Positions 7,932 to 46,944 of a stretch of 64,000 nucleotides of DNA are shown piece after piece (position 1 is the stretch's first letter; every line of letters starts with the position of its first letter). This stretch comes from Nitrospirota bacterium. Lineage in GTDB: Bacteria; Nitrospirota; JACRHJ01. The notes under the pieces were generated by a model. That model ran no database searches, was not told where the DNA came from, and saw only the letters and a list, made by a program, of their open reading frames with translations. The position numbers and the translations under genes are program-made. Where the stretch lies: contig JAJYHX010000001.1 of assembly GCA_021784575.1 (NCBI GenBank), positions 539,995 through 603,994 of the forward strand. Direction: 5' to 3'.

Positions 7932-7937
7932 AAAAAA

Positions 7938-16474: not shown

Positions 16475-16482
16475 TAATTTCA

Positions 16483-16498: not shown

Positions 16499-16569
16499 TT
16501 TCACGATAGAGTTGGCGTGTTCTGGAAGAAACATTTGAAGAAACATTTAAGGTATAAGCGGGCTTTTTT

Positions 16570-17970: not shown

Positions 17971-18002
17971 AAAAATTGGGTCATTCCGAAAGGGGTTTAT
18001 TG

Positions 18003-19076: not shown

Positions 19077-19083
19077 GGGCTAT

Positions 19084-21101: not shown

Positions 21102-21132
21102 TATCTGTAGGGGCTCAATTTATTGAGCCCAT

Positions 21133-21156
21133 GGGCGCGATGAATCACGCCCCTAC
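21133..21156. repeat. REP-like palindromic element, family 1 (GGGCGC-N-GCGCCCCTAC)
   Basis: GGGCGCGATGAATCACGCCCCTAC has a second copy at 52677-52702. It is preceded by the perfect hairpin GGGCTCAAT-TT-ATTGAGCCC. Confidence 0.55.
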
Positions 21157-21170
21157 TTTAGGAGGAGACT

Positions 21171-23653: not shown

Positions 23654-23666
23654 CAGGAGGCCAGCC

Positions 23667-25174: not shown

Positions 25175-25179
25175 GAGCG

Positions 25180-27840: not shown

Positions 27841-27866
27841 TGGGCGTTTTGCGGGAAGATTTTTCG

Positions 27867-27901
27867 GAGGCAGGTGGGAGAGGTTCCATCTGCCTCTTTT
27901 T
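27867..27901 (+). terminator. rho-independent terminator
   Basis: GAGGCAG (27867-27873) pairs with CTGCCTC (27890-27896), followed by TTTTT. Confidence 0.6.
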
Positions 27902-27920
27902 GCAAGCATGAAGGGAAAAT

Positions 27921-29984: not shown

Positions 29985-31522
29985 TGCATTTCGGCCTCAG
30001 GACCAAGGTAATAACGTTCGCATCCTGCCTGGTTGTCGCGATAATCGGGATAAACGCGGCGGTAATGCTCCATACCGAGAAGACCGACAGCAAAAAACAG
30101 CTCGAGGAGCAGGGGAAACTCTTCGCCAAGCTTACCGCCACGGAAGTCGTCCATACTTACGGCTCGCTGTCCTGGGAATCCGGCGGAAAGCAGGACGTCC
30201 GGACGCAGATGCTGAAGTTCTTCAGATACTACCCGGACCTTGTCCGGCTCACGATTATCAGCCAGTCCGGGCTTATACTATGGGATTCGGGCGGCGCTCC
30301 GGGACATACCCCGGTTGTGGACGAAGCGCTCCTGAAAAGGCTTCCCTCGAACGGGATCGATACTGAAAAATACTACGGGCCGGACGGCGAGGAGTATATG
30401 GATATCCTGGCCCCCGCCGCGGAAAACGGCGGGCCGCAGTTCCTGAAGGTCAGGTATATCATATCCTACCGTTCGCTGAAACAACGGCTTGTAGGCATAA
30501 GGAAGCAGTTCCTGCTCCTGACCGTTATCTTCATGTTCGTTGGCGTGTTTACGGCGGCTGCCTTTGCGGCAAAGCTCATAAACCCGATACTTGCCCTGAA
30601 GGAAAGCGCCCGCGCGATAGAAGGAGGCGACCTGGACCAGGCGGTTGAGCTTGACCGCGAGGACGAGCTCGGCGAGCTTGGCCGGTCGTTTAATTCTATG
30701 GCAGGCGCGTTGAAGGGGCACAGGCGCGACCTGGAGGAGGCGAACAGGAACCTCCTGGCCGCGAACGAGGAGCTGAGGCTCCTCCAGACGGAGCTTGTCC
30801 GCTCCGAGAGGATGGCCGCGGTGGGCCAGCTTGCGGCGGGGCTTTCCCACGAGATAGACAACCCTATCGGCGTGATAATGGGTTTTGCGGAGCTTTTGCT
30901 GGAAGACACGCCTCCTGAAGACCCAAGGCGCGAAGACCTTGCCAGGATACTGGACGAGAGCAGGCGCTGCAAACGCATTGTCAGGGGACTGCTCGATTTC
31001 TCTCGCCCTCCGGCCCTCGGAGTCGTGCCGACCGACCTTGCGGAGGCGCTTGGCCAGACGGTCGAAGCCGCGAAGACACAGAGACTTTTTCGGGATGTGA
31101 GGATAAACCTTGATAGTTCCCCCGTCCCGAAAGTAATGGCCGACCCGGACAGGCTGAGGCAGGTATTTATGAACCTTATGATAAACTCCGCCCAGGCGAT
31201 GCCGGACGGCGGGAATATAGACATAAAACTCCGGCATGAGGAGGCGGCGGGTGAAGTGCGGATATCTTTCTGCGACAGCGGCCCCGGAATAAGTCCCGAA
31301 AACATGGAAAGGATTTTCGAGCCTTTCTATACCACCAAACGACCGGGCGAGGGAACGGGGCTGGGGCTTCCGATATGCGTCCGGCTCCTTGAAGAGCATG
31401 GAGGCAGGGTTTGGGTGGAAAGCGCCTCCGGGAAGGGCGCGACATTCACCGTTTCGCTCCCGGACGGGCAGATTTCCGATGAAGTCCCCGGAGAGACTGA
31501 CGGAACAGGCGAAAATTCTTGA
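29984..31522 (+). CDS. sensor histidine kinase (periplasmic sensor, HAMP, HisKA, HATPase)
   Basis: Start is the ATG at 29984 (or TTG at 29981), overlapping the ResB stop. It has two TM helices, a HAMP domain, the H-box SHEIDNPIGVI, the N-box NLMINSAQAM, and the G-boxes DSGPGI and GTGLGLPI. Confidence 0.85.
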   Translation: MHFGLRTKVITFASCLVVAIIGINAAVMLHTEKTDSKKQLEEQGKLFAKLTATEVVHTYGSLSWESGGKQDVRTQMLKFFRYYPDLVRLTIISQSGLILWDSGGAPGHTPVVDEALLKRLPSNGIDTEKYYGPDGEEYMDILAPAAENGGPQFLKVRYIISYRSLKQRLVGIRKQFLLLTVIFMFVGVFTAAAFAAKLINPILALKESARAIEGGDLDQAVELDREDELGELGRSFNSMAGALKGHRRDLEEANRNLLAANEELRLLQTELVRSERMAAVGQLAAGLSHEIDNPIGVIMGFAELLLEDTPPEDPRREDLARILDESRRCKRIVRGLLDFSRPPALGVVPTDLAEALGQTVEAAKTQRLFRDVRINLDSSPVPKVMADPDRLRQVFMNLMINSAQAMPDGGNIDIKLRHEEAAGEVRISFCDSGPGISPENMERIFEPFYTTKRPGEGTGLGLPICVRLLEEHGGRVWVESASGKGATFTVSLPDGQISDEVPGETDGTGENS

Positions 31523-31545: not shown

Positions 31546-31644
31546 ATGGGAAAGCTTAAAAGGCGCTGTGGTTATAAAACCTGTATTTGCAGAATATGTG
31601 ATTGCAATTTGCTTTGCCCGCGCAGAACGAGAAAGCTGAATTAA
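31546..31644 (+). CDS. candidate 32-aa basic, six-cysteine peptide (below the ORF-track threshold)
   Basis: The ATG..TAA ORF reads MGKLKRRCGYKTCICRICDCNLLCPRRTRKLN and fills 99 of the 126 intergenic nt. Its stop lies 4 nt before the regulator ATG, which has no SD of its own. The ORF itself has no clear SD. Confidence 0.35.
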   Translation: MGKLKRRCGYKTCICRICDCNLLCPRRTRKLN

Positions 31645-31648: not shown

Positions 31649-33034
31649 ATGCCTGACATAAGGATACTGGTCGTAGACGACGAGCCTGGAATGCGCAGCC
31701 TGCTGAGCCGGGTGCTGGCCAAGAGCGGGTATTCCGTAAGCGCGTTCGAGAAAGGGGCGGATGCGCTCGAATCCATAAACTCGGAAGACTATGATCTTGC
31801 AATCCTCGATATCGAGATGCCGTCCATGAACGGCATCGAGCTTTTAAAGAAAATCAAGATAAAAGACCCGTCCCTGTCCGTCGTGATGATAACCGCCTAC
31901 GGCTCGCTCCAGTCCGCCGTGGAGGCGATGCGTCTGGGGGCGTACGATTACTTGAGCAAGCCCTTCGAGATGGAGGAGATAAAGCACGTAGTCGGGAAGG
32001 CTCTGGAGCGCGAGCGGCTGATACGGGAGAACCGTGAGCTTCACAAGGAACTGGAGGAACAATACCGTTTTACGGGCATAGTGGGCAAAAGCCCCAGGAT
32101 GGAAGAGGTCTACGAGCTTGTAAACCAGGTGGCGGCGACCAACGCAAGCGTCCTGATACAGGGCGAATCCGGCACCGGCAAGGAGCTCGTGGCCCGCTCT
32201 ATTCATTACAACAGCAGGCGGAAGGGCCAGCCGCTCGTGATACTCAACTGCGCCGCGCTCGCCGAGGGGGTGCTGGAATCAGAGCTTTTCGGCCATGAAA
32301 AGGGCGCCTTTACGGGCGCGATAAAGCGAAAGGCCGGGCGTTTCGAGCTGGCGCACGAAGGCACGATTTTCCTGGACGAGATAGGCGAGATACCGATTTC
32401 CACGCAGTTGAAGCTCCTCAGGGTATTGCAGGAGCACGAGTTCGAGCGGGTAGGCGGAGAGAAGACGATAAAGGTTGACGTCCGGATTATCGCCGCGACG
32501 AACAAGGACCTCATGGAGGCCGTAAAAGAGGGACGTTTCCGGGAAGACCTGTACTACCGCCTGAATGTCGTAAACATAAGCATCCCGCCGCTCAGGGAGA
32601 GGAAAGACGACATCCCCGGTCTTGCCGAGCACTTTCTTGCGAAGTTTTCCGGGGAGACGGGCAAGAAAGTCGAAGGCATAGAACCCGCCGCCATGGACAT
32701 GCTTACGCGCTACGACTGGCCTGGAAACGTCCGGGAACTGGAGAACATAATAGAGCGCGCGGTGGTGCTCGAAAAGAGCGAGACGGTTACTCCTTCGAGC
32801 CTGCCTCTTACGCTTCGCCATGAGGCCGGGGACGCGGACGTCGTAAAGCTTCCGGAAGGCGGCGGGACACTGACCGATGTCCTGGAGGAACTCGAAAGAC
32901 AGCTTATTGTCAAGGCTCTGAAAGAAAAAAGCGGCTCGCAGACCGCGGCGGCGGCGGCCCTGGGTCTTAAACGCAGCACGCTTCGCTATAAACTGGAAAA
33001 ATACGGGCTTGTATCGGCGGAACTCTCTGAATAG
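31649..33034 (+). CDS. sigma-54-dependent response regulator (NtrC family)
   Basis: 461 aa with an REC domain (ILVVDDEPG, DLAILDIEMP), an AAA+ domain with GESGTGKE and the GAFTGA loop (ELFGHEKGAFTGA), and a C-terminal HTH (AAAALGLKRSTLRYKLEKYGL). Confidence 0.9.
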   Translation: MPDIRILVVDDEPGMRSLLSRVLAKSGYSVSAFEKGADALESINSEDYDLAILDIEMPSMNGIELLKKIKIKDPSLSVVMITAYGSLQSAVEAMRLGAYDYLSKPFEMEEIKHVVGKALERERLIRENRELHKELEEQYRFTGIVGKSPRMEEVYELVNQVAATNASVLIQGESGTGKELVARSIHYNSRRKGQPLVILNCAALAEGVLESELFGHEKGAFTGAIKRKAGRFELAHEGTIFLDEIGEIPISTQLKLLRVLQEHEFERVGGEKTIKVDVRIIAATNKDLMEAVKEGRFREDLYYRLNVVNISIPPLRERKDDIPGLAEHFLAKFSGETGKKVEGIEPAAMDMLTRYDWPGNVRELENIIERAVVLEKSETVTPSSLPLTLRHEAGDADVVKLPEGGGTLTDVLEELERQLIVKALKEKSGSQTAAAAALGLKRSTLRYKLEKYGLVSAELSE

Positions 33035-33048
33035 GAACGGAATTTGCA
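33033..33048 (+). promoter_or_regulatory. sigma-54 (-24/-12) promoter for the beta-helix / transporter / rSAM operon
   Basis: AGGAACGGAATTTGCA has GG-N10-GC spacing and a TTGCAT -12 box. About 21 of 26 nt are identical to the promoter at 16483. It lies very close to the ATG at 33067/33073. Confidence 0.55.
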
Positions 33049-33066: not shown

Positions 33067-33735
33067 ATGCGGATGAAACCCATTAAATTTTTTACAATCG
33101 GTTTTATTCTCGCCCTTATTGTTTCCTCGCGCGCCCTTGGCAGCGACAGGCCAATGCAGGTGGAGGGAGTGATAAAAAAGAGCGCAGAATGGTCGGGAAC
33201 TATACTAATAACCGGCGATACGCTTGTGCCTGAAGGCGTAACGCTGAAGATAGCTCCGGGCGCCAAGGTCTTGTTCGTCTCAAGCGAAAGCTCGAAGATT
33301 GAGCCCCTGTATCTTTCGATGCAGACCGAGCTCCTTGTCCGGGGCAGACTCCTGGCAAAGGGCACGGAGAAGGCGCCGATAATCTTCGGTTCCGCGGGCC
33401 GGGACGAGGATGGAGACAGTATAAAGCCCAAAAAGGGCTGCTGGGCCGGCCTGATATTCGACGGCCCGGACTCGTCCGACAGCGTTGTCTCTCATGCGTC
33501 CATCAGGTTCGCGGATTCGGCGATAACGACAATAAATTCTTCGCCGGTCTTTAGTTTCTGCGACCTCACGGACGGCAATTACGGTATCTCCTGCCTCGGC
33601 GAATCATGGCCCATGGTCTATTCCTGCAACATTGCCGGGAACGACTTCGGGGTGTTGTCGGGCAAAGGGGCCGAAGCGGGGATTGACCACACGAAGGTGG
33701 AAAATAACAAGGTGGATTTTATTACGAGGCAATGA
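33067..33735 (+). CDS. exported beta-helix family protein, short (N-terminal module only plus a few turns)
   Basis: 222 aa with a signal peptide and the shared module AEWSGTILITGDTLVPEGVTLKIAPGAKVLF...APIIFGSA...GCWAGLIF. There is no NWWG tail. Confidence 0.65.
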   Translation: MRMKPIKFFTIGFILALIVSSRALGSDRPMQVEGVIKKSAEWSGTILITGDTLVPEGVTLKIAPGAKVLFVSSESSKIEPLYLSMQTELLVRGRLLAKGTEKAPIIFGSAGRDEDGDSIKPKKGCWAGLIFDGPDSSDSVVSHASIRFADSAITTINSSPVFSFCDLTDGNYGISCLGESWPMVYSCNIAGNDFGVLSGKGAEAGIDHTKVENNKVDFITRQ

Positions 33736-33738: not shown

Positions 33739-34653
33739 ATGGTACAGGACTTCTTGAGCAACTTGCAGGGCAGTGGTATGGCGGGGTTTTATATCGCGGC
33801 GTTTATCCTGGGCGCATTTCACGCGCTCGAACCCGGGCACGGGAAGACCGTTGTCGCGGCGTATCTCATCGGCTCAAAGGCGAAGGTTTACGAGGCGTTT
33901 GTGCTCGGAGTCATTGTAACCTTCACGCATACCTTCAGCATAATTGTCCTGGCAATCCTGGCGAGGTTTTTCGCCGAGAGGTTCACCGGTCTGCAACTGC
34001 ATATTTATCTTGGTTTTGCCGCGGCGGCCATGATACTCGGCGTCGGCCTCTCCATGATATGGACACGTTTCCGGGCCTTGAGAAGGCATATACGTCACCG
34101 CAATGAACATGCCGACGCCCATGACCATGAACACGAGCATGACCATGATCACGAGCATGACCACGAACACGAGCACGTGCATGATGAACATTCTCATATG
34201 CATTCCGACCATTACCATGACCACGACCATGACCACGACCATGACCATGAGCATGACCATGAGCACGACCACGAGCATCCTCATGCGCATTCCCACGGAG
34301 GGTTTTCCCATACGCACTATGTTCCGGGGCCGGGCGAGGAACCCTCGCTATGGAAGCTGTTTCTGCTTGGCATATCAGGCGGCATCGTGCCCTGTCCTGC
34401 GGCCTTCGCCCTTCTTCTCGCGGCTGTTTCCGCAGGCGCCGTTGCCAAAGGCTTAAGCCTCGTGATAGTCTTTTCGCTCGGCCTGGCGTTTGCGCTGATT
34501 ACCATAGGCGTAGGCGTTGTCAAGACGGCGGGGTTTGCCGGCAGGTTCATGGATATGGAAAAGGCGGCGCCGTACATATCGCTTGCGAGCGCCGTGCTTG
34601 TGACGCTTATAGGCGTCGCGACATTGTACGGCTCGATAATGCATGTAATTTAA
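33739..34653 (+). CDS. RcnA/NicO-like nickel/cobalt-type transporter with a His-rich loop
   Basis: 304 aa with the signature FHALEPGHGK in TM1, a central loop of about 79 aa holding about 34 His (HDHEHEHDHDHEHDHEHEH...), and further TM helices including GGIVPCPAA. Confidence 0.75.
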   Translation: MVQDFLSNLQGSGMAGFYIAAFILGAFHALEPGHGKTVVAAYLIGSKAKVYEAFVLGVIVTFTHTFSIIVLAILARFFAERFTGLQLHIYLGFAAAAMILGVGLSMIWTRFRALRRHIRHRNEHADAHDHEHEHDHDHEHDHEHEHVHDEHSHMHSDHYHDHDHDHDHDHEHDHEHDHEHPHAHSHGGFSHTHYVPGPGEEPSLWKLFLLGISGGIVPCPAAFALLLAAVSAGAVAKGLSLVIVFSLGLAFALITIGVGVVKTAGFAGRFMDMEKAAPYISLASAVLVTLIGVATLYGSIMHVI

Positions 34654-34667
34654 GAAACTGCGCTATT

Positions 34668-35786
34668 ATGAATAAGGTCTTGTTTATATTAATTTTACTC
34701 TTTCCCGGGGCCGCGCTCGCAAGCGGCGGCATACTGCGCCTGCACGACCAGACGTATAATATCGACCAGACCTGGAGCGGCAAGGTTATAATCGACGGTG
34801 TTATTCAATTCGGGCCGAAGGCGACCCTTACGGTCCTGCCCGGGACGAAAGTCGAGTTTACAAGGAACGACGCCCACGGCATCGGCATTGGCGAGAACGA
34901 GATATACATCCAGGGCAGGCTTGTCGCAAAGGGGACAGCGGACAAACCGATAGTGTTCACTTCGGCCGAAAAAACCAAAAGGCCGGGGGACTGGGGCGCG
35001 GTGAATATAATGGTGAGCCAGGGCAAGATAAACAGGCTTTCCCATTGCATAATCGAGTATGGTTATCGCGGCTTTCACATGCATTTCTCCAAAGCGTCGA
35101 TAACCGATTCCAGTCTCAGGCACAATTACATGGGCATTCAATGCCAGGACTCGTCTCTCGACATTGAGCGCTGCGAGATAAACGATAACGAATGCGGGGC
35201 GATAGTCTTTAGAGACTCCAGGCTCAAGATACGCGACTGCAACATACACGACAACCCCTGGGGGATAAGGTTCCTTTACGGCAGGGCGGATATTACGGGC
35301 AACGTATTGACGGGGAACATCTTAAACGGGATTACGTTCAGCGGGGCGAAGGTAAGGGTATCAGGCAATATCCTGCGCGGAAACAGGAAAGGAATCTCGG
35401 CGGATAAATCCCGGGTCGAGATAACAGGCAACGTGCTGGCGGAAAACTACGAAAGCGGGCTGTACCTTAAACGCTCGAAGGGCGTTGTTACCGGCAACCA
35501 GATTACCGGGAACGGCTATACCGGAATATCCGTTACGGATTCGGACGTGAAAATAACCGGGAACAACATAAGGGCGAACTGCATCTGGGCGATAGACAAC
35601 GGCGGCAAACAGGACGTGGATGCGGCAGGCAACTGGTTCGGGCCTTCCTTCAGGGTGGACCCGGCGAGGCTATTGTACGACAGAGGCAGGGATGCGGCCC
35701 TGGGAAAGGTGACCATCCTCCCCCAGGCGGACAGGCCTTTTATAATAACGCCCGATGTTTCCGTTCCGGCGGGCAGGCATGAATAA
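34668..35786 (+). CDS. exported right-handed beta-helix (NosD-like) protein
   Basis: Trimmed to the ATG at 34668 (MNKVLFILILLFPGAALA). It has the module QTWSGKVIIDG...LTVLPGTKVEF...PIVFTSAEKTKRPGDWG, beta-helix turns (ITGN.L.GN...) and GNWFGPSF...LLYDRGRDAALGKVTILP. Confidence 0.8.
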   Translation: MNKVLFILILLFPGAALASGGILRLHDQTYNIDQTWSGKVIIDGVIQFGPKATLTVLPGTKVEFTRNDAHGIGIGENEIYIQGRLVAKGTADKPIVFTSAEKTKRPGDWGAVNIMVSQGKINRLSHCIIEYGYRGFHMHFSKASITDSSLRHNYMGIQCQDSSLDIERCEINDNECGAIVFRDSRLKIRDCNIHDNPWGIRFLYGRADITGNVLTGNILNGITFSGAKVRVSGNILRGNRKGISADKSRVEITGNVLAENYESGLYLKRSKGVVTGNQITGNGYTGISVTDSDVKITGNNIRANCIWAIDNGGKQDVDAAGNWFGPSFRVDPARLLYDRGRDAALGKVTILPQADRPFIITPDVSVPAGRHE

Positions 35787-35809: not shown

Positions 35810-36205
35810 ATGAGATTAATCTTTCTTCTGTTTTTTATTCTGACGTTAATACCTGCTCCGGCCTTCGCGCACTATACTGGGGAGCTGCTGCCGGATTCGG
35901 TCGCGGTCATGGAATATCAGATGATTATCAGTATGCAGCCGAACGACATGTTGACCAGGAACAAGCTTGGTATGGTGTATCTCAGGCAGAACAAGCTGGA
36001 TAAGGCAAAAGAGCAATTTCTGGAAATATTGAAGATAGACCCGAAAAATTTCGACGCCCTGGACAGCCTCGGCATTGTCTCAAGCAGGCTTGGAGACCCT
36101 TCGCAGGCGGTGGCTTGGTACGAAAGGGCGCTCAAGATAAAGAACGACAATGGTTGCAGGCAGCGGTTCCTGGCGGAAAAGGCCTTGCTGAAGGCGAAAA
36201 AATAA
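35810..36205 (+). CDS. exported TPR-repeat protein
   Basis: 131 aa with a signal peptide and TPR helices (NKLGMVYLRQNKLDKAKEQFLEILKIDPKNFDALDSLGIV...AVAWYERALKI). Confidence 0.7.
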   Translation: MRLIFLLFFILTLIPAPAFAHYTGELLPDSVAVMEYQMIISMQPNDMLTRNKLGMVYLRQNKLDKAKEQFLEILKIDPKNFDALDSLGIVSSRLGDPSQAVAWYERALKIKNDNGCRQRFLAEKALLKAKK

Positions 36206-36216: not shown

Positions 36217-37215
36217 TTGAGAAAGATATTACTTTCATCGATTCTTCTGGTTATGCTGACCTCTCTTGCGTCGTGCGCGGAGGTAAAGCCGATTGCGAAA
36301 TCCGAGCTCCATGAGAAAAGACTCGGGCTCTATACCATGATGAAGGATGCCACGTGGGAAGGCCGGATAAGGATAACGGGCGACGTATACGTGAAAAAGG
36401 GTGCGACGCTTACAATAAAGCCGGGGACGGTTATAAGGTTCGACACGATCGCGCCCAGGCTTGAGTCTCAGGGCGGAAGGAACATGTTCAGCGTCGGCGG
36501 CCCCGGAATCCCGTATTTCCCCGGCGCGGAGATAATCGTCCGGGGGAGGATAATCGCCGTGGGCACGAAGGACAGGCCGATAATCTTCACTTCCGACGAT
36601 CCATCTCCCAGGCCGGGGATATGGGGAGCGGTAAACCTCCTCGGCTCGAACGGCGACGTATTCAAATACTGTCGCATATCCTATGCCTACAACGGCATAC
36701 ACAACCACGCCTCCCACGCGAAGGTGACGAAGTGCATATTCCATGACAACGGGACGGCGCTGTCGTTTATGAAAGCGAATTTCAACAACACCTGCGTAAT
36801 GGACATAGAGGACAACACCATTGTGGGCAATCTCTCCGGCATTTCCGCCAGGTATGCGCACATAACGATTCTCCATAACGACATATCGAACAACAAGTTC
36901 TACGGCATCTGGCTGCACGAGGGCGATAAAGGCAAGATCGCCTACAACGACATAATGAGAAACGGCAAGGGCATCTTTCTTTTCAGGGCGGCGCCGTTGA
37001 AGGTGCATTGGAACAACATAGCCCATAACAGGGAATATAACATTGCGCTGGCCGTGGAGACCCCCAATAATGTAGACGCCGCGGACAACTGGTGGGGCAC
37101 CATCGACCCGGTAAAGATTAAGGCCAGGTTTTACGACAAAAGGACGGACGACAGCCTTGGGCTGGTCAATTTCAGGCCATTCCTCAAGAAAAGGGTGCCC
37201 GACACAGTGAAATGA
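36217..37215 (+). CDS. beta-helix (NosD-like) lipoprotein
   Basis: Trimmed to the TTG at 36217, 6 nt after AAGGAGG. It has the lipobox LTSLASC, the module ATWEGRIRITGDVYV...LTIKPGTVIRF...PIIFTSDDPSPRPGIWG, and the tail DNWWGTIDPVKIKARFYDKRTDDSLGLVNFRPFL. Confidence 0.75.
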   Translation: MRKILLSSILLVMLTSLASCAEVKPIAKSELHEKRLGLYTMMKDATWEGRIRITGDVYVKKGATLTIKPGTVIRFDTIAPRLESQGGRNMFSVGGPGIPYFPGAEIIVRGRIIAVGTKDRPIIFTSDDPSPRPGIWGAVNLLGSNGDVFKYCRISYAYNGIHNHASHAKVTKCIFHDNGTALSFMKANFNNTCVMDIEDNTIVGNLSGISARYAHITILHNDISNNKFYGIWLHEGDKGKIAYNDIMRNGKGIFLFRAAPLKVHWNNIAHNREYNIALAVETPNNVDAADNWWGTIDPVKIKARFYDKRTDDSLGLVNFRPFLKKRVPDTVK

Positions 37216-38009
37216 AAAAGATCGCAATCATAGCGGCTGTCGTCGCCGCAGTCTTGTTCTCCGCGCGGGTCCGCGCAGGTACGCTTGAGGCGAACGCCGT
37301 CTGGACGGGAACGGTAAAGGTGTCGGGCCGGTTATTGGTGAAGCCCGGCGTGACCCTTAAAATCGAGCCGGGGACGGTTGTGAAATTTGTCCCGGCGAAG
37401 CCGGACGATACCGGGCTCGCGCAGTGCGGTATGCTGATACTTGGGACGATAATAGCGGACGGACGGCCCGGCGCGAGGATAAGATTTACCTCGGCGGCGC
37501 AAAGGCCCAGGCCGGGAGACTGGGGAGAGATCCAGATTATAAGGAGCAAGGGAAGCTCTTTTACGGACTGCGACTTCCGCTTTGGCGGATGGGGACTTCA
37601 TATGCATCACACGAAGATAAAAATCTCCGGCTGCACCTTCATGCGCAACCGTTTCGGAGGCATTCGCGGAAAGGGCGGCAGGGTTGAGATTGCCGGCTGC
37701 ATACTCAAGGGGATGCACATAGGCATACGTTACCTAAGCGGCGGGCCGTATATCCACAACAGCGATATAACGGACGACAGGACCGGGATATTCTGGCGCC
37801 AGGGATGCAATCCAAGGATCAAATATAATAACTTCCAGGGCAACAGGGATTACGACATAAAGCTCGGCGAGTTGCAGTCCGGCAATATAGACGCCCGCCT
37901 GAACTGGTGGGGAGACGGAAGACCGAAGCTCTACGACCGTCATCGGGAGAGTTATATCGGCAGGGTCATTACGAAACCGGCGCTTTCGGCCAGGGCAAAA
38001 ATAAACTGA
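37212..38009 (+). CDS. exported beta-helix (NosD-like) protein, short form
   Basis: 265 aa with an ATGA overlap and a signal peptide. It has the module AVWTGTVKVSG...LKIEPGTVVKF...IRFTSAAQRPRPGDWG and the tail LNWWGDGRPKLYDRHRESYIGRVITKP. Confidence 0.75.
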   Translation: MKKIAIIAAVVAAVLFSARVRAGTLEANAVWTGTVKVSGRLLVKPGVTLKIEPGTVVKFVPAKPDDTGLAQCGMLILGTIIADGRPGARIRFTSAAQRPRPGDWGEIQIIRSKGSSFTDCDFRFGGWGLHMHHTKIKISGCTFMRNRFGGIRGKGGRVEIAGCILKGMHIGIRYLSGGPYIHNSDITDDRTGIFWRQGCNPRIKYNNFQGNRDYDIKLGELQSGNIDARLNWWGDGRPKLYDRHRESYIGRVITKPALSARAKIN

Positions 38010-38023: not shown

Positions 38024-38335
38024 ATGCGGAATATCAGGCGGAACCCGGACATAATCTGGCGCGAGGAGGAAGAGGCCAGGGAAGAAGCCGTCAAGGCTAT
38101 GGAGCGCGGCGATGACGCGTCCGGGGAAGGGACGGCGCTGCTTGTGGAATCCGGGATGATGCACCAGCTTAACCTCCTTGGCGGCGAGATATGGAAGCTC
38201 CTCGACGGTATCGACGAAGAAGCCCTTGTGGACAGGCTCGCGGAGGTATTCGACGTGGACAGGGAGACGCTCTCGCGCGACGTCCGGGACTTCCTTATCG
38301 ACATTGACAGGAGGGGCTGGCTGGTCCATGAGTAG
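38024..38335 (+). CDS. PqqD-family protein (RiPP-recognition-element-like peptide chaperone)
   Basis: 103 aa from the ATG at 38024. The pattern is NPDIIWRE...GTALLVESGMMHQLNLLGGEIWKLLDG...LVDRLAEVFDVDRETLSRDVRDFLIDIDRRGWL. Confidence 0.75.
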   Translation: MRNIRRNPDIIWREEEEAREEAVKAMERGDDASGEGTALLVESGMMHQLNLLGGEIWKLLDGIDEEALVDRLAEVFDVDRETLSRDVRDFLIDIDRRGWLVHE

Positions 38336-39326
38336 AATACCTTTTTCGCCCATAACGATCAACTGGACTCTTACCTTCCGGTGCAACTTCAACTGCCGCC
38401 ACTGCTACTCCAGGCCGGAGAAAGCGCCTGAGCTGCCGACGGAACAGGTGAAGGAGATAATGGCGAAGGTTGCAAAATATAAAGTTCCGTTTATAAATTA
38501 CGGCGGAGGAGAACCGCTCCTCAGGAGCGACCTCTTCGAGCTTACCGGGTATGCGGCGGCCCTCGGCTTCAACGTCTCCATGAACACCAACGGGTTTCTG
38601 ATGACGGAAGAGAAGGCGGCCCTGGCCAAAGAGTCCGGTTTTAAGACCGTCGGCGTATCCATAGACAGCACAAGGCCCGAAGCGCACGACGACTTCCGCA
38701 ACACAAAAGGCAGCCACAATAAGGCCGTGAGCGCGGCGAAGTTCCTGAAAGATAAGGGCGTGCGCCTTACAATATCCTCCGTCATATGCCGGATAAATTA
38801 TACTGAGTTCGAGGACCTCGTGCGCCAGGCGAGAGACCTCGGCGCGGAGCAGATTTCGCTGCACAACTACAAATGCGCCGGGATGGGTTTCACCAACAGG
38901 GACGAGCTCGACCTCTCGCCCGCGGAGTGGAAGGAATTTTACCTGAAGGCCATCGCGCTCAGAGAGAAGGTAACGGATATAAGAATATCGATGGACGACC
39001 CCATCACGGCGACGATACACAAGGCCCCGGAGCAGGCGATTGTAAAGGGAAGCACATGCGGGAAGTTGTCTCTCAATATCCGCGCGAACGGCGACGTTAC
39101 GCCGTGCGGTTTTATTCCTGTTGTCATAGGCAACCTGCTCACGGACGACCTGAAAGACCTCTGGGACAACTCGAAAGTCCTTGAGAAGATGCGCAACAAA
39201 AAACCGAAGGAGAAATGCCTTACCTGCAAGCACTACGAGGACTGCCTCGGCGGCTGCACCGCCCGCGCCTACGCCACCACCGGCGACTTCAACTCCCCCG
39301 ACCCGCACTGCTGGGTGGCGAAATAA
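38328..39326 (+). CDS. radical SAM enzyme with SPASM domain
   Basis: 332 aa, with the ATG at 38328 overlapping the PqqD gene by 8 nt. It has CNFNCRHC (CX3CX2C), GGGEPLL, and the SPASM cysteines CGKLSLNIRANGDVTPCG ... CLTCKHYEDCLGGC ... HC. Confidence 0.85.
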   Translation: MSRIPFSPITINWTLTFRCNFNCRHCYSRPEKAPELPTEQVKEIMAKVAKYKVPFINYGGGEPLLRSDLFELTGYAAALGFNVSMNTNGFLMTEEKAALAKESGFKTVGVSIDSTRPEAHDDFRNTKGSHNKAVSAAKFLKDKGVRLTISSVICRINYTEFEDLVRQARDLGAEQISLHNYKCAGMGFTNRDELDLSPAEWKEFYLKAIALREKVTDIRISMDDPITATIHKAPEQAIVKGSTCGKLSLNIRANGDVTPCGFIPVVIGNLLTDDLKDLWDNSKVLEKMRNKKPKEKCLTCKHYEDCLGGCTARAYATTGDFNSPDPHCWVAK

Positions 39327-39431
39327 CCAGCAGGTATTTATGCTGATACGGGTGTCGGCAGGATAAGACTTCACACTTTTCTTTTCCTCTCCCGGTTGAC
39401 CATATATATTATTCAATCTATCCTTTTTTTT

Positions 39432-40505
39432 ATGCGCACCATCCTCCATATCGACATGGACGCCTTCTTTGCGGCGATAGAGGAGCTCCGGCATCCGGAG
39501 CTTAAGGGCAGGCCGCTTGTCGTCGGCGGGAACGGAGACCCGAACACGAGAGGCGTCGTCTCCACCGCGAACTACGCCGCGAGGAAGTTCGGCATCCGGT
39601 CCGCGATGCCGCTCAAGGAGGCATACCGCCGGTGTCCTTCGTGCGTCTTTTTGCCCGTGGACTATGCCGAATATTCCCGCGTATCGAAGGAGATGATGGA
39701 GGTCCTGAGGGAGTTCGGCTGCACAATCGAGGAGGTCGGCATCGACGAGGCGTTCATGGATATAACGGACTGCCCGCTTGGAACACCCGAAGAAATCGGC
39801 AGGAAGCTGAAGGAGCGCATCAGGGAGAAGACGGGTCTCACGGCGTCTGCCGGGATTGCGCCGAACAAGCTCGTTGCGAAGATTGCATCCGACCTTGAGA
39901 AGCCGGACGGGCTTACGATAATCCCGGATGGCAAGGTGCGCGAGAGACTTGCTCCGCTTCCGGCGGACAGGGTCTGGGGCGTAGGCGAGGTGACGTATGC
40001 CCGGCTCCTCAATATGGGGATAAAGACGCTGGGCGACCTTGCGGAAGCGGACGACGGGAAGCTTGCCGCGGAGTTCGGAGAGAACTGGGGACGAAGCCTT
40101 AAAGCGCGCGCACGCGGGATAGACGACTCCGAGCTTGTTACGGAGTGGGAGCCGAGATCGCTGTCGAGAGAGACGACATTCGAGCGGGACACCGCGAAGA
40201 TGCTTGAGATAAAGAAGGAGTTCGAGTGGATGGCGGAAGACCTGGAGCATCGGCTGAAGAAGCGGAATTTCCTTGCCAGGACGGTTACCGTGAAACTGAG
40301 GTATTCGGACTTCACCACCCTCACGCGGGCGAAGACGATGGAGCGTCCTACGGCGGAGCGCGAGCCTATAATGCGCGCGGGGCTGGGGCTTCTGCACAAG
40401 TTCCCGCGGGAGCGCCCGGTGCGGCTTGTGGGGCTTCGTGTGTCGAACTTCGTCGCGGACGGGCAGCCGCAGGACCCGCCGCCGGACGCCGCCCTTTTTG
40501 ATTGA
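39432..40505 (+). CDS. dinB: DNA polymerase IV
   Basis: Trimmed to the ATG at 39432. Y-family motifs are present: ILHIDMDAFFAAIEE, VVSTANYAARKFGIRSAMP and SAGIAPNKLVAKIASD. Confidence 0.9.
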   Translation: MRTILHIDMDAFFAAIEELRHPELKGRPLVVGGNGDPNTRGVVSTANYAARKFGIRSAMPLKEAYRRCPSCVFLPVDYAEYSRVSKEMMEVLREFGCTIEEVGIDEAFMDITDCPLGTPEEIGRKLKERIREKTGLTASAGIAPNKLVAKIASDLEKPDGLTIIPDGKVRERLAPLPADRVWGVGEVTYARLLNMGIKTLGDLAEADDGKLAAEFGENWGRSLKARARGIDDSELVTEWEPRSLSRETTFERDTAKMLEIKKEFEWMAEDLEHRLKKRNFLARTVTVKLRYSDFTTLTRAKTMERPTAEREPIMRAGLGLLHKFPRERPVRLVGLRVSNFVADGQPQDPPPDAALFD

Positions 40506-40641: not shown

Positions 40642-41079
40642 GTGGAAAAGCTTATACCGGTATTCAAGGCGATGGCGGACGAAACGAGGCTCAGGATATT
40701 AAAGCTCCTTTCCTGCGGAGACGAGATATGCGTGTGCGACCTCACGGAGGCCCTGGAGATGACGCAGCCGAATATCTCGTTCCACCTGGGCATACTCAGG
40801 GAAGCGGGACTCATAAAAGACAGGCGCGAGGGGCGCTGGAGTTTCTATCAGCTCGACACGGGCGACATGTTAAACCGCTCGCTCGTTCCCGCTTCTCTTG
40901 AGAGGGTTGCCGGCAGAAAGCTCGACGGCGACAAGAAGCGCCTCGAAGCTGCGCGCAAGGCAAAGGAAACCGCAAAGGCGGCCAGAGCCAAGGCCGATAA
41001 ACCAAAGCTTAAAAAAGGCCGTAAACCGGGCGCCGCCGGGGCGAAATCCGTGTCGAAAAGAAGGTCTGTGGAGGCGTGA
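40642..41079 (+). CDS. arsR: ArsR/SmtB-family metalloregulator with a Lys/Ala-rich C-terminal tail
   Basis: GTG start after GGGAGGG. It has the ELCVCDL-type site (DEICVCDLTEAL), the HTH QPNISFHLGILREAGLI, and a roughly 50-aa basic K/A/R tail. Confidence 0.8.
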   Translation: MEKLIPVFKAMADETRLRILKLLSCGDEICVCDLTEALEMTQPNISFHLGILREAGLIKDRREGRWSFYQLDTGDMLNRSLVPASLERVAGRKLDGDKKRLEAARKAKETAKAARAKADKPKLKKGRKPGAAGAKSVSKRRSVEA

Positions 41080-41086
41080 CGTGGTT

Positions 41087-41920
41087 ATGGATAAGAAAAT
41101 AAAACTCAGCGTGCGGAAGACGTACTCCGGCATTGCGAAGGGCGAGTCCGGCAGTTGCTGCGGCTCAACAAAACCGAAGTTCGCGCACGAGGAAAATATC
41201 GGTTACGACATGAAAGAGCTTCTGGGCCTGCCTGAAGGCGCGATTCTCGGCGTCGGCTGCGGCAACCCTGTAGCCCTCGCCTCGCTTAAGGCGGGCGAGA
41301 CAGCGCTTGACCTCGGCTCCGGCGCGGGTATCGACGTATTCCTTGCCGCCGGCAGGGTCGGGCCTTCCGGCAGGGTGATAGGCGTGGACATGACGCCCGA
41401 GATGCTCGCCCGCGCGAAGAAGAACGCCGAGGACGGGAAGTTCACGAACGTCGAGTTCCGACAGGGCGAAGTGGAAAACCTGCCGGTGGAAGACTCTTCC
41501 ATAGACTGCGTGATAAGCAACTGCGTCATAAACCTCTCCGTGGACAAGGACAGGACATTCTCCGAGGCGTTCCGCGTCCTGAAGAGCGGCGGGCGGCTTA
41601 TGGTGTCGGACATCGTGCTTACGAAAGACCTGCCGCGCGCCGTGGTGGAGAATGTCGAGGCGTATACCGGGTGCGTCTCCGGGGCTGTGAAGCACGACGA
41701 GTATATCGCGGCTGTAAGGCGAGCCGGGTTTGAAGACATTACCGTCCTCTCGCTCGACGACGCCTCTTTTCTCGCGGAGACGACATGCGGCTGCGGGATT
41801 GTCACAAAGGACAACGTCAGCGACCTTGGCCTTCGGAGCATAAAACTCCTTGCAAAGAAGGGCGGCCAAAGCGACTTTGGCGGGCCGGAATCCTGCGGCG
41901 GGGACTGCTGTGGCGATTAA
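41087..41920 (+). CDS. arsM: arsenite S-adenosylmethionine methyltransferase-like protein
   Basis: Trimmed to the ATG at 41087. It has the SAM motif LDLGSGAGIDVF and the ArsM-type cysteines (GSCCGS, VGCGNP, SNCVINL, YTGCVSGA), and it follows arsR. Confidence 0.75.
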   Translation: MDKKIKLSVRKTYSGIAKGESGSCCGSTKPKFAHEENIGYDMKELLGLPEGAILGVGCGNPVALASLKAGETALDLGSGAGIDVFLAAGRVGPSGRVIGVDMTPEMLARAKKNAEDGKFTNVEFRQGEVENLPVEDSSIDCVISNCVINLSVDKDRTFSEAFRVLKSGGRLMVSDIVLTKDLPRAVVENVEAYTGCVSGAVKHDEYIAAVRRAGFEDITVLSLDDASFLAETTCGCGIVTKDNVSDLGLRSIKLLAKKGGQSDFGGPESCGGDCCGD

Positions 41921-42660: not shown

Positions 42661-43869
42661 ATGACCGGGAAAAGGGATTATTACGAGGTCCTTGGAGTCC
42701 CGAAGACCGCGGACGAAAAGGAGATAAAAAAGGCATACAGGAAGCTTGCCCGTAAATTTCACCCGGACGTCAACCCCGGCGACAAGGATGCGGAGCGCAA
42801 GTTCAAGGAAATAGGCGAGGCGTACGACATCCTCTCCGACCCCAAGAAGCGCGGCATGTACGACCAGTTCGGCCACGCGGCCTTCGATCAGGGCCAATCG
42901 GCCGGCTTCAGGCCGGGGGCAGGCGCGGGGCCTGGAGGTTTCCGGTATGAATACAGACCCGGCGGCTTCGGGCCGGAAAACTTCGAGGGCTTTGCCCACG
43001 GAGGCCGGTCTGCCGGTTTCGGCGCGGGGGAATTCGAGGACATGGTCTCCGGCCTGTTTGGAGGCCGTTCTGCCGGCTTCGGGCCTTCCGGGCCTGTGAA
43101 GGGCGAGGATACGTCCACCACGATGGAAGTGGACTTCGAGGACGCCCTTTTCGGGACGACCGCACAGCTTAACCTGCGGCGCGAAGTCCCATGCGCCTCC
43201 TGCGGCGGCACGGGGACACAGCCCGGAACCCGGCCCGGAACCTGCCCGGACTGCGGCGGCGCAGGGCAGACCAAGGCCGGGCGCGGGATGTTCAGCATAA
43301 ACAGGACGTGCCCGCGCTGCGGCGGCAGCGGCAAGGTGCAGGAGCCTTGCCGGACGTGCGGCGGCAGCGGCTATGTCCCGAAGACGGAGAACCTTACGGT
43401 AAAGATACCGCCGGGAGTGGACGATGGCTCGAAAGTCCGGCTCCCCGGCATGGGCGGCCCCGGCATGAACGGCGGCCCTCCGGGCGATTTGTATATCATA
43501 ACCAGGGTCCGCCGGCATCCGTATTTTGAAAGGCGCGGCGACGACCTCTACAGCGAAATACCAATAACTTTTTCCGAGGCCGCGCTGGGCGCAAAGGTTG
43601 ACGTGCCCACGAGGGACGGGATTGTAACCATGACCATCCCGCCGGGGACGCAGTCCGGCCAGGAATTCCGCCTGCGTGGAAAGGGCGCGCCTCGCCTCGG
43701 CAAGACGGGCTCCGGAGACCATTACGTCCGGGTGAAGGTGGCTGTGCCGTCTTCCTTGAGCGAGCAGGCGAAATCGGCCCTCATGGATTTTGTGAGGCAT
43801 AATCCGCAGAACCCGCGCGCAGGCATCGGCTTCGGCGGGTTCAGGCGCGGCGGGAGGGGCGCGGCATGA
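42661..43869 (+). CDS. dnaJ: DnaJ-class molecular chaperone
   Basis: J domain with HPD ([19 protein letters not shown]), a G/F region and four CxxCxGxG zinc-finger motifs. Confidence 0.9.
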
Positions 43870-44252
43870 CAAGAAAACAGACCGCCGTATACATGATAAG
43901 CGTCGTCTCCGAGATGCTCGGTGTGCACCCGCAGACGCTTAGGCTCTATGAGCGCGAGGGTTTCGTGCATCCCTCGCGGCGCGCCGGCGTAAGGATATAT
44001 TCCGAGGATGACGTTGAGCGCATCCGGGCGATAATTAATCTTACCCGCGACATGGGCGTGAACCTCGCGGGCGTCGAGGTCATACTCTCGATGCGCGAGA
44101 GGATGCAGAAGCTCCAGGACGAAATGGAGCACATGATGTTCGAGATGCGCGAGGAGTTCATGCGGGAGCTTTCGCGCCGCGAGGCGGAGATGAAACACCC
44201 CCTGGCCAAGGTGCCCGAGGGGAAGATTATAAAAGTGAGGAAGATGCGGTAA
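43866..44252 (+). CDS. hspR: MerR-family heat-shock repressor, HspR-like
   Basis: 128 aa with the MerR HTH ([30 protein letters not shown]). It sits between dnaJ and clpB, as in HspR regulons. Confidence 0.75.
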
Positions 44253-44257
44253 TCAAC

Positions 44258-44313
44258 CTGTCATTCTGAGCGGAGCGAAAAGTCCGGGGCAGTCGAAGGG
44301 TTCAGAATGACAG
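44258..44313. repeat. 12-bp-stem hairpin containing REP-like element family 2 (TGTCATTCTGAGCG...)
   Basis: CTGTCATTCTGA (44258-44269) pairs with TCAGAATGACAG (44302-44313). The left arm plus loop matches 63878-63903 at 23 of 26 nt. Confidence 0.6.
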
Positions 44314-44334
44314 TAAATGTTGGTCGGAGGTTTT

Positions 44335-46944
44335 ATGCGGCTCGATAAATTCACGGTAAAGGCGCAGGAGGCCATGCTTGCCGCGCAGGACGAGGCGGGC
44401 AGGCGCGGGCATCAGCAGGTGGACGCGGAGCATCTGCTGCTGGCCCTCCTTAGGCAGGAAGAAGGTGTTGTGCCGCCGATACTCAAGAGACTCGGTGCGG
44501 ACGTGAAGGCGCTTGAAGGCGGAGTAATCTCGGAGCTTGAGCGGATGCCGAAAGTCGAAGGCTCCAGCGCGATGGGGCAGGTATACGTTACGCAAGGGCT
44601 GAACGGGATTCTTGAGCGCGCGGCGCGCGAGATGGACGGCCTGAAGGACGAGTACGTCTCGACGGAACACCTGCTCCTTGCAATGGCGGAAGACGACGGC
44701 GCGGCGGGCAGACTCCTTAAAGGCGCCGGCGCAAAGAGGGACGGAATACTAAGGGCGTTGAAGGAAATCCGGGGTTCCGAGCGTGTTACCGACCAGAACC
44801 CGGAAGGGAAGTATGAGGCGCTTGCGAAATACGGCAGGGACTTGACAGACCTTGCGCGGAGAGGGAAGCTCGACCCGGTGATAGGCCGGGACGAGGAGGT
44901 GCGCCGGGTTATACAGGTGCTCTCCCGCAGGACGAAGAACAACCCCGTCCTGATAGGCGAGCCGGGCGTCGGCAAGACCGCGATTGTCGAGGGCCTCGCC
45001 CAGAGGATAATCGCCGGAGACGTGCCGGAGGGCCTGAAGGACAAGCGCGTTGTCGCGCTCGACATGGGCGCGCTTATCGCCGGGGCGAAGTTCCGGGGCG
45101 AGTTCGAGGACAGGCTGAAAGCCGTCCTGAAGGCCGTGGAGGAATCCCAGGGGAGGATTGTTCTTTTTATCGACGAGATGCATACGCTTGTCGGAGCGGG
45201 CGCGGCGGAAGGCGCGGTGGACGCCTCTAACATGCTGAAACCCGCCCTTGCCAGGGGAGAGCTTCGGTGCGTCGGCGCGACGACCATAGACGAATACAGG
45301 AAGCACATAGAGAAAGACCCGGCCCTTGAGCGGCGCTTCCAGCCGGTGATGGTGCAGGAGCCGGACGTTGATGATACCATCTCGATACTCAGGGGCCTGA
45401 AGGAGCGCTACGAAGTCCACCACGGCGTGCGCATAAAGGATTCCGCGCTCATAGCGGCGGCGATGCTTTCCAACCGCTACATAACCGACCGCTTCCTGCC
45501 GGACAAGGCCATAGACTTAATCGACGAGGCGGCGTCCAGGCTCCGCATGGAGATAGACTCCATGCCCACGGAGCTCGACGAGCTCGACAGGACGATAAGA
45601 CGGCTCCAGATAGAGCGGCAGGCGGTAAAAAAGGAAAAAGACCAGGCGTCGAAGGAGCGGCTAAGCGGCATAGAGAAGGAGATTTCCGGGCTTTCCGAGA
45701 AGCGCTCCGGGCTTCATGCCCGGTGGATGAACGAGAAAGATGCAATCAAAAGAATACGCGGGCTCAAGGAGAAGCTGGAGCAGGCCAAAAGCGATGCGGA
45801 GCGCGCAGAGCGGGAGGGGAACCTGGGCCGCGCGGCGGAGCTTCGCTACGGGACTATCGTGGAGCTGGACAAGGGTCTTCAGAGGCAGAACGAGGCGCTG
45901 GCGGCTCTCCAGGAGCAAGGGACTCTTCTGAAGGAAGAAGTCGATGAGGAGGACATAGCCAGGATTGTCTCGAAGTGGACGGGCGTGCCGGTATCGAAAA
46001 TGCTTGAAGGCGAGGCGGCAAAGCTCACGAGGATGGAAGAGCGGCTTCGTGAGAGGATTGTCGGGCAGGAGGAGGCTGTCGCCGCCGTGTCGGACGCCGT
46101 GCGCCGGGCGAGGGCGGGGATACAGGACCCCGGGAGGCCGATTGGCTCGTTCATATTCCTTGGGCCGACGGGCGTCGGCAAGACGGAGCTTGCGCGCGCG
46201 CTGGCCGAGTTCCTTTTCGACGACGAGAAGGCGATGGTCAGGATAGACATGTCCGAGTATCAGGAGAAGCATACCGTGTCGAGGCTTATCGGCGCGCCTC
46301 CGGGATACGTGGGTTTCGAGGAGGGCGGCCAGCTGACGGAGGCGGTGCGCAGGAGGCCCTATTCCGTCATACTCTTCGACGAGATAGAGAAGGCGCACCC
46401 GGAGGTGTTCAACGTGCTGTTGCAGCTTCTCGAGGACGGCCGGCTCACGGACGGGCACGGGCGCACGGTTGACTGCAGGAACACCGTCGTCATCATGACC
46501 TCCAACATCGGGGGAAGCATCATACAGGAGGCGAAGACCGAGGACGAGATGCGAAGGCTTGTATCAGATGCCCTGAAGGGCCATTTCAAGCCGGAGTTCT
46601 TAAACCGCATAGACGACATAATAATATTCCACCCGCTCTCCGGGGAGCAGTTGAAAAGGATAGTGGACATTCAGCTTGGGCTCCTCCAGAGGCATATCGC
46701 CCAGAAGAAGCTGAACATAGTATTGACCCCGGCGGCAAGGGAGATGCTTGTGACGATGGGATACGACCCGGCATACGGCGCAAGGCCGCTTAAACGCGCC
46801 ATCCAGAGGGAGATACTGAACCCGCTCGCCATGAAGATACTCGAGGGGCAGTTCAAGGAGGGCGATACGGTGCAGGCGGACTTTGAAGGCGGGCGGCTCG
46901 CCTTCCGCCGGATGTCCGAGGCCGGGGCGGCGCCTTTATCTTGA
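44335..46944 (+). CDS. clpB: ATP-dependent chaperone ClpB
   Basis: Trimmed to the ATG at 44335 after GGAGG. It has a Clp N domain, two AAA+ modules ([18 protein letters not shown]) and a long coiled-coil middle domain. Confidence 0.95.

Follow-up and report, generated by a model that had tools for sequence, protein, structure and literature searches.

What do a PqqD-type protein and a radical SAM/SPASM enzyme act on when no precursor peptide is encoded beside them? The question is posed by a 64,000-nucleotide (nt) stretch of DNA from a Nitrospirota bacterium (assembly GCA_021784575.1, contig JAJYHX010000001.1, positions 539,995 to 603,994), here called the window, in whose coordinates all positions are given. 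The two genes form the 3' end of an operon of NosD-like beta-helix genes on the forward strand. The first (38024-38335 (+), ATG start) encodes a predicted peptide chaperone of the GeoRSP-type PqqD family, an RRE protein of 103 residues, and the second (38328-39326 (+), ATG start) a GeoRSP-type radical SAM/SPASM enzyme of 332 residues. Their open reading frames (ORFs) share 8 nt (ATGAGTAG), and a gap of 14 nt lies 5' of the PqqD gene. An earlier annotation made without database searches (the sequence-only reading) had described both genes, their overlap, the upstream gap and the surrounding beta-helix operon. All of these were reproduced here, and Pfam assigns the upstream genes to NosD/Beta_helix. 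We lean towards reading the two proteins as a functional GeoRSP pair, chaperone and maturase, that acts on a peptide encoded beyond the window.

The pair belongs to the GeoRSP family

In NCBIfam the GeoRSP system is described by three models, TIGR04302 (PqqD-family chaperone), TIGR04303 (radical SAM/SPASM protein) and TIGR04304 (SPASM-domain protein). The PqqD protein passes the equivalog cut-off of the first over its full length (107.9 bits against 100, residues 1-102), and the enzyme passes that of the second (455 bits against 400, with residues 7-329 aligned to model positions 3-325). The models of characterised subfamilies score the enzyme far below their own cut-offs: AhbD (TIGR04545) at 198.9 bits against 500, NirJ2 (TIGR04055) at 186.2 against 500, MftC (TIGR03962) at 174.8 against 265, NirJ (TIGR04051) at 166.6 against 515, PqqE (TIGR02109) at 147.9 against 381 and anSME (TIGR03942) at 93.2 against 349. 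Pfam gives the PqqD protein 57.8 bits (PF05402, cut-off 23.4) and the enzyme 101.4 bits for Radical_SAM (PF04055) and 40 bits for SPASM (PF13186). To judge from these models, membership of both genes in GeoRSP is near-certain. The sequence-only reading had called a stand-alone PqqD/RRE protein and a compact radical SAM/SPASM enzyme, and had mentioned a GeoRSP-type family as an example. Each call, including that of PqqD, was kept in the model searches, and the scoring against SPASM subfamilies that it had proposed left GeoRSP alone above cut-off.

The enzyme carries the cluster motif CX3CX2C as C19-x3-C23-x2-C26 (CNFNCRHC) and the SAM-binding motif GGGEPLL at residues 59-65 (G59-G61-E62), both read in the translation as previously described. 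The SPASM motif CX9-15GX4C ... CX2CX5CX3C ... C is complete with seven cysteines, C244-x10-G255-x4-C260, C297-x2-C300-x5-C306-x3-C310 and C328. The canonical SPASM set of the sequence-only reading therefore stands, with its first spacing corrected from C-x14-C to C-x15-C. In a 13-sequence family alignment the motif cysteines are invariant, as is C183. With all catalytic motifs and cluster ligands present, the pair is intact. An antisense ORF of 700 residues over the same region (38295-40397 (-)) has no Pfam match and was dismissed as a shadow ORF.

The GeoRSP family has a name and counts hundreds of members, most of which come from anaerobes that cycle metals and sulfur. A large protein database held 762 homologues of the enzyme at E ≤ 1e-40, those with named sources coming mostly from Nitrospirota, Geobacteraceae and Geopsychrobacter. 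Several are already labelled 'GeoRSP system radical SAM/SPASM protein', and NCBI and JGI both use the GeoRSP name at 80% identity. By sequence, the nearest PDB entries to the enzyme are PqqE (6c8v, 1.3e-23) and SkfB, and a Foldseek search with its AlphaFold model ranked SkfB and SuiB at the top, followed by PqqE. The best PDB match of the PqqD protein, a predicted leader-binding chaperone, is the lasso RRE TbiB1. Together these matches point to a peptide-maturase character of the pair. Literature searches with GeoRSP, TIGR04302-4 and YedE with PqqD found no paper on the substrate or function of the system.

A conserved short peptide accompanies the enzyme in relatives

We compared 84 genomic loci (80 fetched with enzyme relatives, together with L201-L204), each covering ±10 kb, and 120 metagenomic loci (L081-L200). 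The PqqD gene adjoins the radical SAM gene in all 80 of the 80 fetched loci. Recognised genes were masked in all loci, and the remaining ORFs of 18-110 residues were clustered without supervision. The largest cluster, drawn from 38 loci, was an ORF of 18-26 residues on the operon strand, lying about 1030 nt from the start of the radical SAM gene, just after its stop. A typical member reads MKKYMKPRVVGSSNVHPC, and the consensus is MKKYxKPxVVGSSxVHPC followed by the stop codon, at 18-20 residues; a Nitrospirota variant ends in KYVKPSVVGSSSVHPC. We refer to it as the VHPC peptide. A survey of gene neighbourhoods for conserved small ORFs had been suggested by the sequence-only reading, and this peptide is what the survey returned.

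Regular-expression and hidden Markov model (HMM) searches placed the peptide in 40-44 of 74-84 loci. It lies directly 3' of the radical SAM gene in 37 of the 72 loci with enough downstream sequence, among them L007, the nearest outgroup of the window clade (examples are L007:11065-11145 and L010:11023-11079). We take the ORF to be coding because of its codon-position entropy (0.41/0.34/1.28 at positions 1/2/3, against 1.78/1.81 in the flanks), because 41 copies represent 40 distinct nucleotide sequences, and because a GGAGG Shine-Dalgarno site stands 6-9 nt 5' of it; by these sequence measures it behaves as a translated gene. Residues Y4, P7, G11, V15, H16, P17 and C18 are invariant. No NCBIfam model matches the peptide at E ≤ 10, and a literature search with the motif found no paper describing it.

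The peptide also occurs away from the enzyme. A DNA pattern back-translated from it matched contigs in metagenomes at least 120 times, and every one of the 120 listed contigs encodes the same kind of peptide. The family as a whole has at least 152 distinct gene sequences. Upstream sequence of 1.3 kb or more is available for 72 metagenomic copies; 20 of these follow a radical SAM gene and 52 do not, and many of those 52 adjoin FG-GAP, DUF4198/CarboxypepD_reg or NosD-like genes that are homologous to genes of the window. The peptide is tied to the same gene families yet is often unlinked from the enzyme. To judge from the relatives, the VHPC peptide is the probable natural substrate of the GeoRSP family.

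Three gene orders surround the family

The genomic loci fall into three types. Type A is that of Desulfuromonadales such as Geothermobacter (L080), in which genes for a short beta-helix protein, a NosD-like protein, a PhnD-like binding protein and a 179-residue relative of the TPR proteins found in types B and C precede those for YedE (TIGR04112, 401 bits), PqqD, the radical SAM enzyme, a SPASM-only protein and an SclA-like cysteine desulfurase (TIGR01977). In type B, found in other Nitrospirota and in Geobacter (for example L027), the order begins with a NosD fusion, CarboxypepD_reg, OpuAC-like, ResB-like, PhnD-like and TPR proteins and continues with YedE, an ArsP-type permease, a cupin, PqqD, the radical SAM enzyme and a SPASM-only protein (TIGR04304, 273 bits). 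The few type B loci with peptide copies inside ±10 kb (L059, L071 and L074) carry them 6-10 kb upstream, at -6998 in L071 and at -9735 and -6149 in L074, measured from the start of the radical SAM gene.

Type C consists of the window with L001-L006 and L201-L204, at 77-95% identity. It runs through HEAT, CarboxypepD_reg and ResB-like proteins, a histidine kinase, a sigma-54 regulator, a short beta-helix protein and NicO to NosD, TPR, NosD, NosD, PqqD and the radical SAM enzyme, after which come unrelated, variable genes. An 11-gene architecture is preserved down to 77% identity, and the HEAT, CarboxypepD_reg and ResB-like families recur beside GeoRSP in other phyla. The commonest neighbours outside type C are NosD-like proteins (46 of 48 loci), YedE and PhnD-like proteins (43 of 48 each) and the SPASM-only partner (61 of 64), which in the relatives is without the CX3CX2C motif.

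The window departs from the other types in several ways. Its operon has a NicO transporter where relatives have YedE, and the module of PhnD-like protein, TPR protein, YedE and desulfurase that directly flanks the PqqD and radical SAM genes in most relatives lies 30 kb upstream of the pair. By tblastn this module (5259-9143) is 46-52% identical to the corresponding neighbours in L080 and L027. No homologue of the TIGR04304-type partner was found in the 64-kb window other than the enzyme's own SPASM domain, nor was the partner found in the L201-L204 loci.

We nevertheless count the pair as maintained, because its substitution rates are low and its family-conserved residues are kept. Against relatives, with synonymous divergence (dS) up to about 1.5, the ratio of non-synonymous to synonymous rates (dN/dS) is 0.04-0.11 for the radical SAM gene and 0.11-0.23 for the PqqD gene, and of the positions conserved elsewhere in the family the window clade retains 127 of 138 in the enzyme and 26 of 28 in the PqqD protein. 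Clade-specific changes at conserved positions include C60L in PqqD and D93T, L137A, I227T and G295E in the enzyme. Both genes are under strong purifying selection, though the linked peptide and the SPASM-only partner are absent.

Where is the substrate of the window pair encoded?

In many relatives the segment that follows the radical SAM gene holds the VHPC peptide gene and then the SPASM-only partner; in the window the equivalent non-coding spacer (39327-39431) is empty. It contains no conserved ORF and varies among the close relatives L001-L006, which agrees with the sequence-only reading that there is no adjacent precursor gene. A second site is the junction of FG-GAP and DUF4198 genes (13186-13376 (+)), where L150, L162 and L085 have a VHPC peptide gene and the window has only an intrinsic terminator with a strong hairpin (13304-13336). 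A resemblance to the peptide in one frame of 39327-39431 (GVGRIRLHT) was rejected as a remnant, being absent from L001-L006 and not returned by the nucleotide HMM. The 32-residue cysteine-rich ORF at 31546-31644 (+), which had been put forward as a candidate substrate, was also abandoned, both as a gene and as a substrate, since a stop breaks the frame in L001 (82% nucleotide identity) and the region is replaced in L002.

Tetranucleotide composition of two metagenomic peptide loci correlates with that of the window and L201, at r = 0.89-0.90 for L126 (Ga0214472_10005421) and r = 0.80-0.83 for L083 (Ga0334722_10009936), the latter from the same metagenome as L201 and L203. Both could be unlinked peptide loci of related Nitrospirota, but their G+C content is about 5 points higher.

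Several observations weigh against an unlinked VHPC peptide as the substrate here. Strict and relaxed regular expressions, including a selenocysteine-for-cysteine ending, found no such peptide in the window; the best E-values there were 4.6 with the protein HMM and 1.5 with a nucleotide HMM trained on 152 different sequences of the peptide gene. None was found within ±10 kb of ten type C relatives (L001-L006 and L201-L204) either, and the assignment of this substrate to the window lineage is an extrapolation because neither the window nor the flanks of these relatives contain the peptide. The missing SPASM-only partner could mean that the reaction is altered in the window clade. In the AlphaFold model of the enzyme the radical SAM core alone is confident, the SPASM half having a predicted local distance difference test score (pLDDT) below 50 at residues 282-332. 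The peptide itself could be a regulatory leader or arrest peptide, as it also precedes unrelated-looking operons; we consider a precursor role more likely because of its recurrent position inside the PqqD-radical SAM-SPASM block. Finally, we found no experiment or paper linking the peptide to the enzyme. Among the options that the sequence-only reading had listed, an unlinked peptide is nonetheless the best supported, and we favour it on the strength of the family's conserved peptide, which looks cognate and is frequently encoded away from the radical SAM gene.

Alternative explanations

It is possible that the pair has been re-targeted in the window clade to a protein of its own operon. A candidate is the NosD-like protein at 37212-38009, which is translationally coupled; a different beta-helix protein or a transthyretin-like one, likewise secreted, could serve as well. 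Modification would take place in the cytoplasm, ahead of Sec export, as it does in sulfatases modified by anSME and in QhpC modified by QhpD. The pair follows three NosD-like genes, across junctions that overlap or measure 14 nt, and NosD-like proteins are the most constant neighbours of the family, in 46 of 48 loci against 37 of 72 for the adjacent peptide. The clade has moreover lost the local peptide and the SPASM-only partner, and has acquired the changes in PqqD (C60L) and the enzyme (D93T, L137A, I227T, G295E) noted above. Set against this, no frame of the window contains a core-like G-S-x-x-V-H-x-C motif, most family-conserved residues of both proteins are unchanged, a PqqD-type chaperone usually binds a short leader peptide, and unlinked peptide genes are common in the GeoRSP family. 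We regard re-targeting as the main alternative, though an unlikely one.

A more improbable explanation is a tetrapyrrole, or some other small molecule, as the enzyme's substrate in the manner of AhbD or NirJ, perhaps with heme handling by the ResB-like protein and a non-peptide role for PqqD. After GeoRSP the best NCBIfam matches are indeed AhbD, NirJ2 and NirJ, a ResB-like protein is encoded at 28674-29984, and JGI labels some homologues 'AdoMet-dependent heme synthase'. The scores of 199, 186 and 167 bits nevertheless fall far under the curated cut-offs of 500-515, pairing with PqqD is obligate in the fetched loci, a conserved peptide adjoins the genes in many of them, the nearest solved structures are peptide maturases, and nothing else of heme or heme d1 biosynthesis was recognised among the window proteins. 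The NirJ/AhbD-like role that the sequence-only reading had allowed is therefore weak now. Decay is the least credible of these explanations. The locus does lack two of the system's four usual components, as it would if the pair were a functionless GeoRSP remnant in this lineage, but the dN/dS values are low at this level of divergence, the cluster ligands are all intact and the 11-gene architecture is kept to 77% identity, and we regard a relic as very improbable.

A proposed mechanism

If the preferred reading of a working pair with an unlinked peptide is right, the stand-alone RRE/PqqD-type chaperone and the radical SAM enzyme, with its two predicted SPASM auxiliary Fe-S clusters, would act together on a ribosomal peptide of 18-20 residues, as suggested by the relatives. 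The chaperone may bind the basic N-terminal part (KKYxKP), and the enzyme, through a 5'-deoxyadenosyl radical, may modify the invariant C-terminal G-S-x-x-V-H-P-C. As for the chemistry, we would guess first at a crosslink in which the terminal cysteine takes part, for instance a thioether. Alternatives are a His-Pro-Cys cyclophane or, as in MftC, an oxidative decarboxylation at the C-terminus. Cysteine crosslinks, cyclophanes and C-terminal oxidative decarboxylation all belong to established radical SAM/SPASM chemistry. The window lineage would carry this out without an adjacent SPASM-only partner and with its peptide gene elsewhere.

The conserved neighbours suggest that the product would serve a periplasmic set of NosD-like beta-helix and transthyretin-like proteins, a set that appears to travel with chalcogen genes (YedE, SclA-like desulfurase, PhnD-like protein) and metal transporter genes (NicO, ArsP). 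A role in periplasmic sulfur, selenium or metal handling is suggested by YedE, the desulfurase, the PhnD-like and NosD-like proteins, NicO/ArsP and the NapH/NosR-like electron-input partners. On the basis of gene neighbourhood alone, an antibiotic is a less likely product than a small cofactor or a peptide that handles sulfur, selenium or a metal. A wider proposal, which we put forward tentatively and hold with some reservation, is that GeoRSP is the maturation machinery for the unannotated VHPC peptides, which would become a novel cofactor of peptide origin, or else a ligand that carries sulfur, selenium or metal, for a periplasmic system (NosD-like, transthyretin-like, YedE, desulfurase) widespread in Nitrospirota and Desulfuromonadales/Geobacterales, with the window lineage as a minimal two-gene version whose peptide is unlinked or whose pair has been re-targeted.

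Should a new peptide-derived cofactor or chalcogen/metal carrier be made, this would be the third PqqD-plus-radical SAM system of its kind after those of PQQ and mycofactocin. The candidate peptide MKKYMKPRVVGSSNVHPC and its variants can be synthesised, which makes GeoRSP function directly testable, and the NosD-like proteins, YedE, the SclA-like desulfurase and the metal transporters form a partner set for such tests. In addition, a reduced variant that is still under selection is a natural experiment on the need for the SPASM-only partner and for a linked peptide gene.

Other genes of the window

The upstream module (5259-9143 (+)) encodes the PhnD-like binding protein, a TPR protein, a YedE-family putative selenium transporter (TIGR04112, 383.7 bits, cut-off 200) and the SclA-like cysteine desulfurase (TIGR01977, 463.8 bits, cut-off 377). 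The PhnD-like protein weakly resembles the models of a selenate-binding protein and of the TtrS sensor, far below the cut-off of each. Divergent from this operon is a second full-length transporter of the YeeE/YedE family (3755-4918 (-), 'Sulf_transp', PF04143, 239 bits), with a sigma-54-like site just upstream of it (4936-4951 (-)). There follows a long array of secreted-protein genes (9481-26736 (+)), which comprises five CarboxypepD_reg/DUF4198 proteins, two FG-GAP proteins, a NosD-like/beta-propeller fusion (14480-16474), more NosD-like proteins, a DUF362 protein, an OpuAC-like protein and a Tat-signal Npun_F2552-like protein, and ends in a NapH/NapG/NosR-like polyferredoxin of 518 residues (25180-26736). 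The array is not one transcript because of the intrinsic terminator at 13304-13336.

A HEAT-repeat lipoprotein, a CarboxypepD_reg lipoprotein and the ResB-like membrane protein, all assigned by Pfam, are encoded at 26932-29984 (+). They are followed by a HAMP histidine kinase (29981-31522 (+)) and a sigma-54-dependent response regulator (31649-33034 (+)), both identified from their translations and from Pfam matches of the L201 and L203 orthologues. Next comes a short beta-helix-like secreted protein of 222 residues (33067-33735 (+)), with homologues in 58 of 80 loci and PF13229 matches in its L201 and L203 orthologues, and then the NicO/RcnA-like metal transporter (33739-34653 (+), PF03824, 77.3 bits; NF007454, 153 bits, below the cut-off of 195). 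This transporter has an unusually long cytoplasmic loop of about 70 residues, almost all His, Asp or Glu in HDHEHEH-type repeats. The operon continues with a NosD-like beta-helix protein (34665-35786 (+), PF13229 81.2 bits, PF05048 64.8 bits), a TPR protein (35810-36205 (+), TPR Pfam families), a NosD-like beta-helix lipoprotein (36250-37215 (+), PF13229 62.3 bits, PF05048 59.5 bits) and, immediately 5' of the pair, a NosD-like beta-helix protein of 265 residues with a signal peptide (37212-38009 (+), PF13229 38.5 bits, PF05048 21.1 bits), which is conserved in the type C relatives.

Sigma-54-like GG-N10-GC elements were found at 5167-5182, 16483-16498 and 33033-33048 (+), with weaker ones at 9423 and 10611. 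The three stand 19-77 nt 5' of genes for the PhnD-like protein, a NosD-like protein and the leading beta-helix protein of the PqqD/radical SAM operon, positions that fit control by the regulator at 31649-33034. Their total, 3 against 1.3 expected, is not above chance, and what is suggestive is their positions alone. An Rfam search of the window found no riboswitch.

Directly 3' of the operon lies the gene for DNA polymerase IV (DinB, 39432-40505); the long ORF that begins with TTG at 39396 probably extends the gene too far. Arsenic and metalloid resistance genes lie just 3' of the GeoRSP operon in the type C clade. In the window this is an arsenite methyltransferase (40898-41920, NF008823, 310 bits), and in L203 (11147-13556) and L201 (16675-20258) there are ArsR-type, Acr3/SBF-type, ArsP-type and low-molecular-weight-phosphatase-fold genes together with thioredoxins. 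A heat-shock block at 42661-46944 holds DnaJ, a MerR/HspR-like regulator and an 875-residue ORF that is by position the counterpart of ClpB, confirmed as such in L201 only. DnaJ homologues also precede one subgroup of the metagenomic VHPC peptide genes (L104, L123, L139 and L165).

Comparison with known systems

One parallel is PqqD/PqqE, which act on a very short peptide that is modified near its C-terminus. The window shares with them a stand-alone PqqD chaperone and a radical SAM/SPASM enzyme for which PqqE is the best PDB match by sequence. It differs in the enzyme's score against the PqqE model (147.9 bits against 381), in that no pqqA, pqqB or pqqC genes were found in the window, and in that the VHPC peptide is without the Glu...Tyr pair. 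MftC likewise modifies a short peptide at its very C-terminus, the start of a redox cofactor, and MftB/MftC follow the same chaperone-and-enzyme logic; the MftC model is among the better-scoring peptide maturases. The enzyme is nonetheless below its cut-off, there is no MftA with C-terminal Val-Tyr and no MftD, MftE or MftF, and the VHPC peptide ends in His-Pro-Cys.

With SkfB, AlbA, PapB and SuiB, the maturases of sactipeptides, ranthipeptides and streptide, the enzyme shares its fold and auxiliary clusters, SkfB and SuiB being its top Foldseek matches, and the cysteine-containing core of the VHPC peptide suggests thioether chemistry. Those maturases carry a fused N-terminal RRE, whereas the GeoRSP RRE is a separate gene, and the scores against them are far below the cut-offs. 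Bacteriocin clusters typically also have genes for a protease or an exporter, and none of these was seen. AhbD and NirJ resemble the enzyme in length and SPASM architecture and are its second-best NCBIfam matches; apart from their low scores, they differ in having neither a PqqD partner nor a peptide.

The closest system is GeoRSP itself. Both window proteins exceed the equivalog cut-offs, their genes are adjacent and overlapping, and the neighbourhood of NosD-like, CarboxypepD_reg and ResB-like proteins is shared; in contrast to the family at large, the window has neither a TIGR04304-type partner nor a VHPC peptide gene, has NicO in place of YedE, and keeps the module of YedE, PhnD-like protein and desulfurase 30 kb upstream. 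The window is a reduced two-gene variant of a named family rather than a new kind of system.

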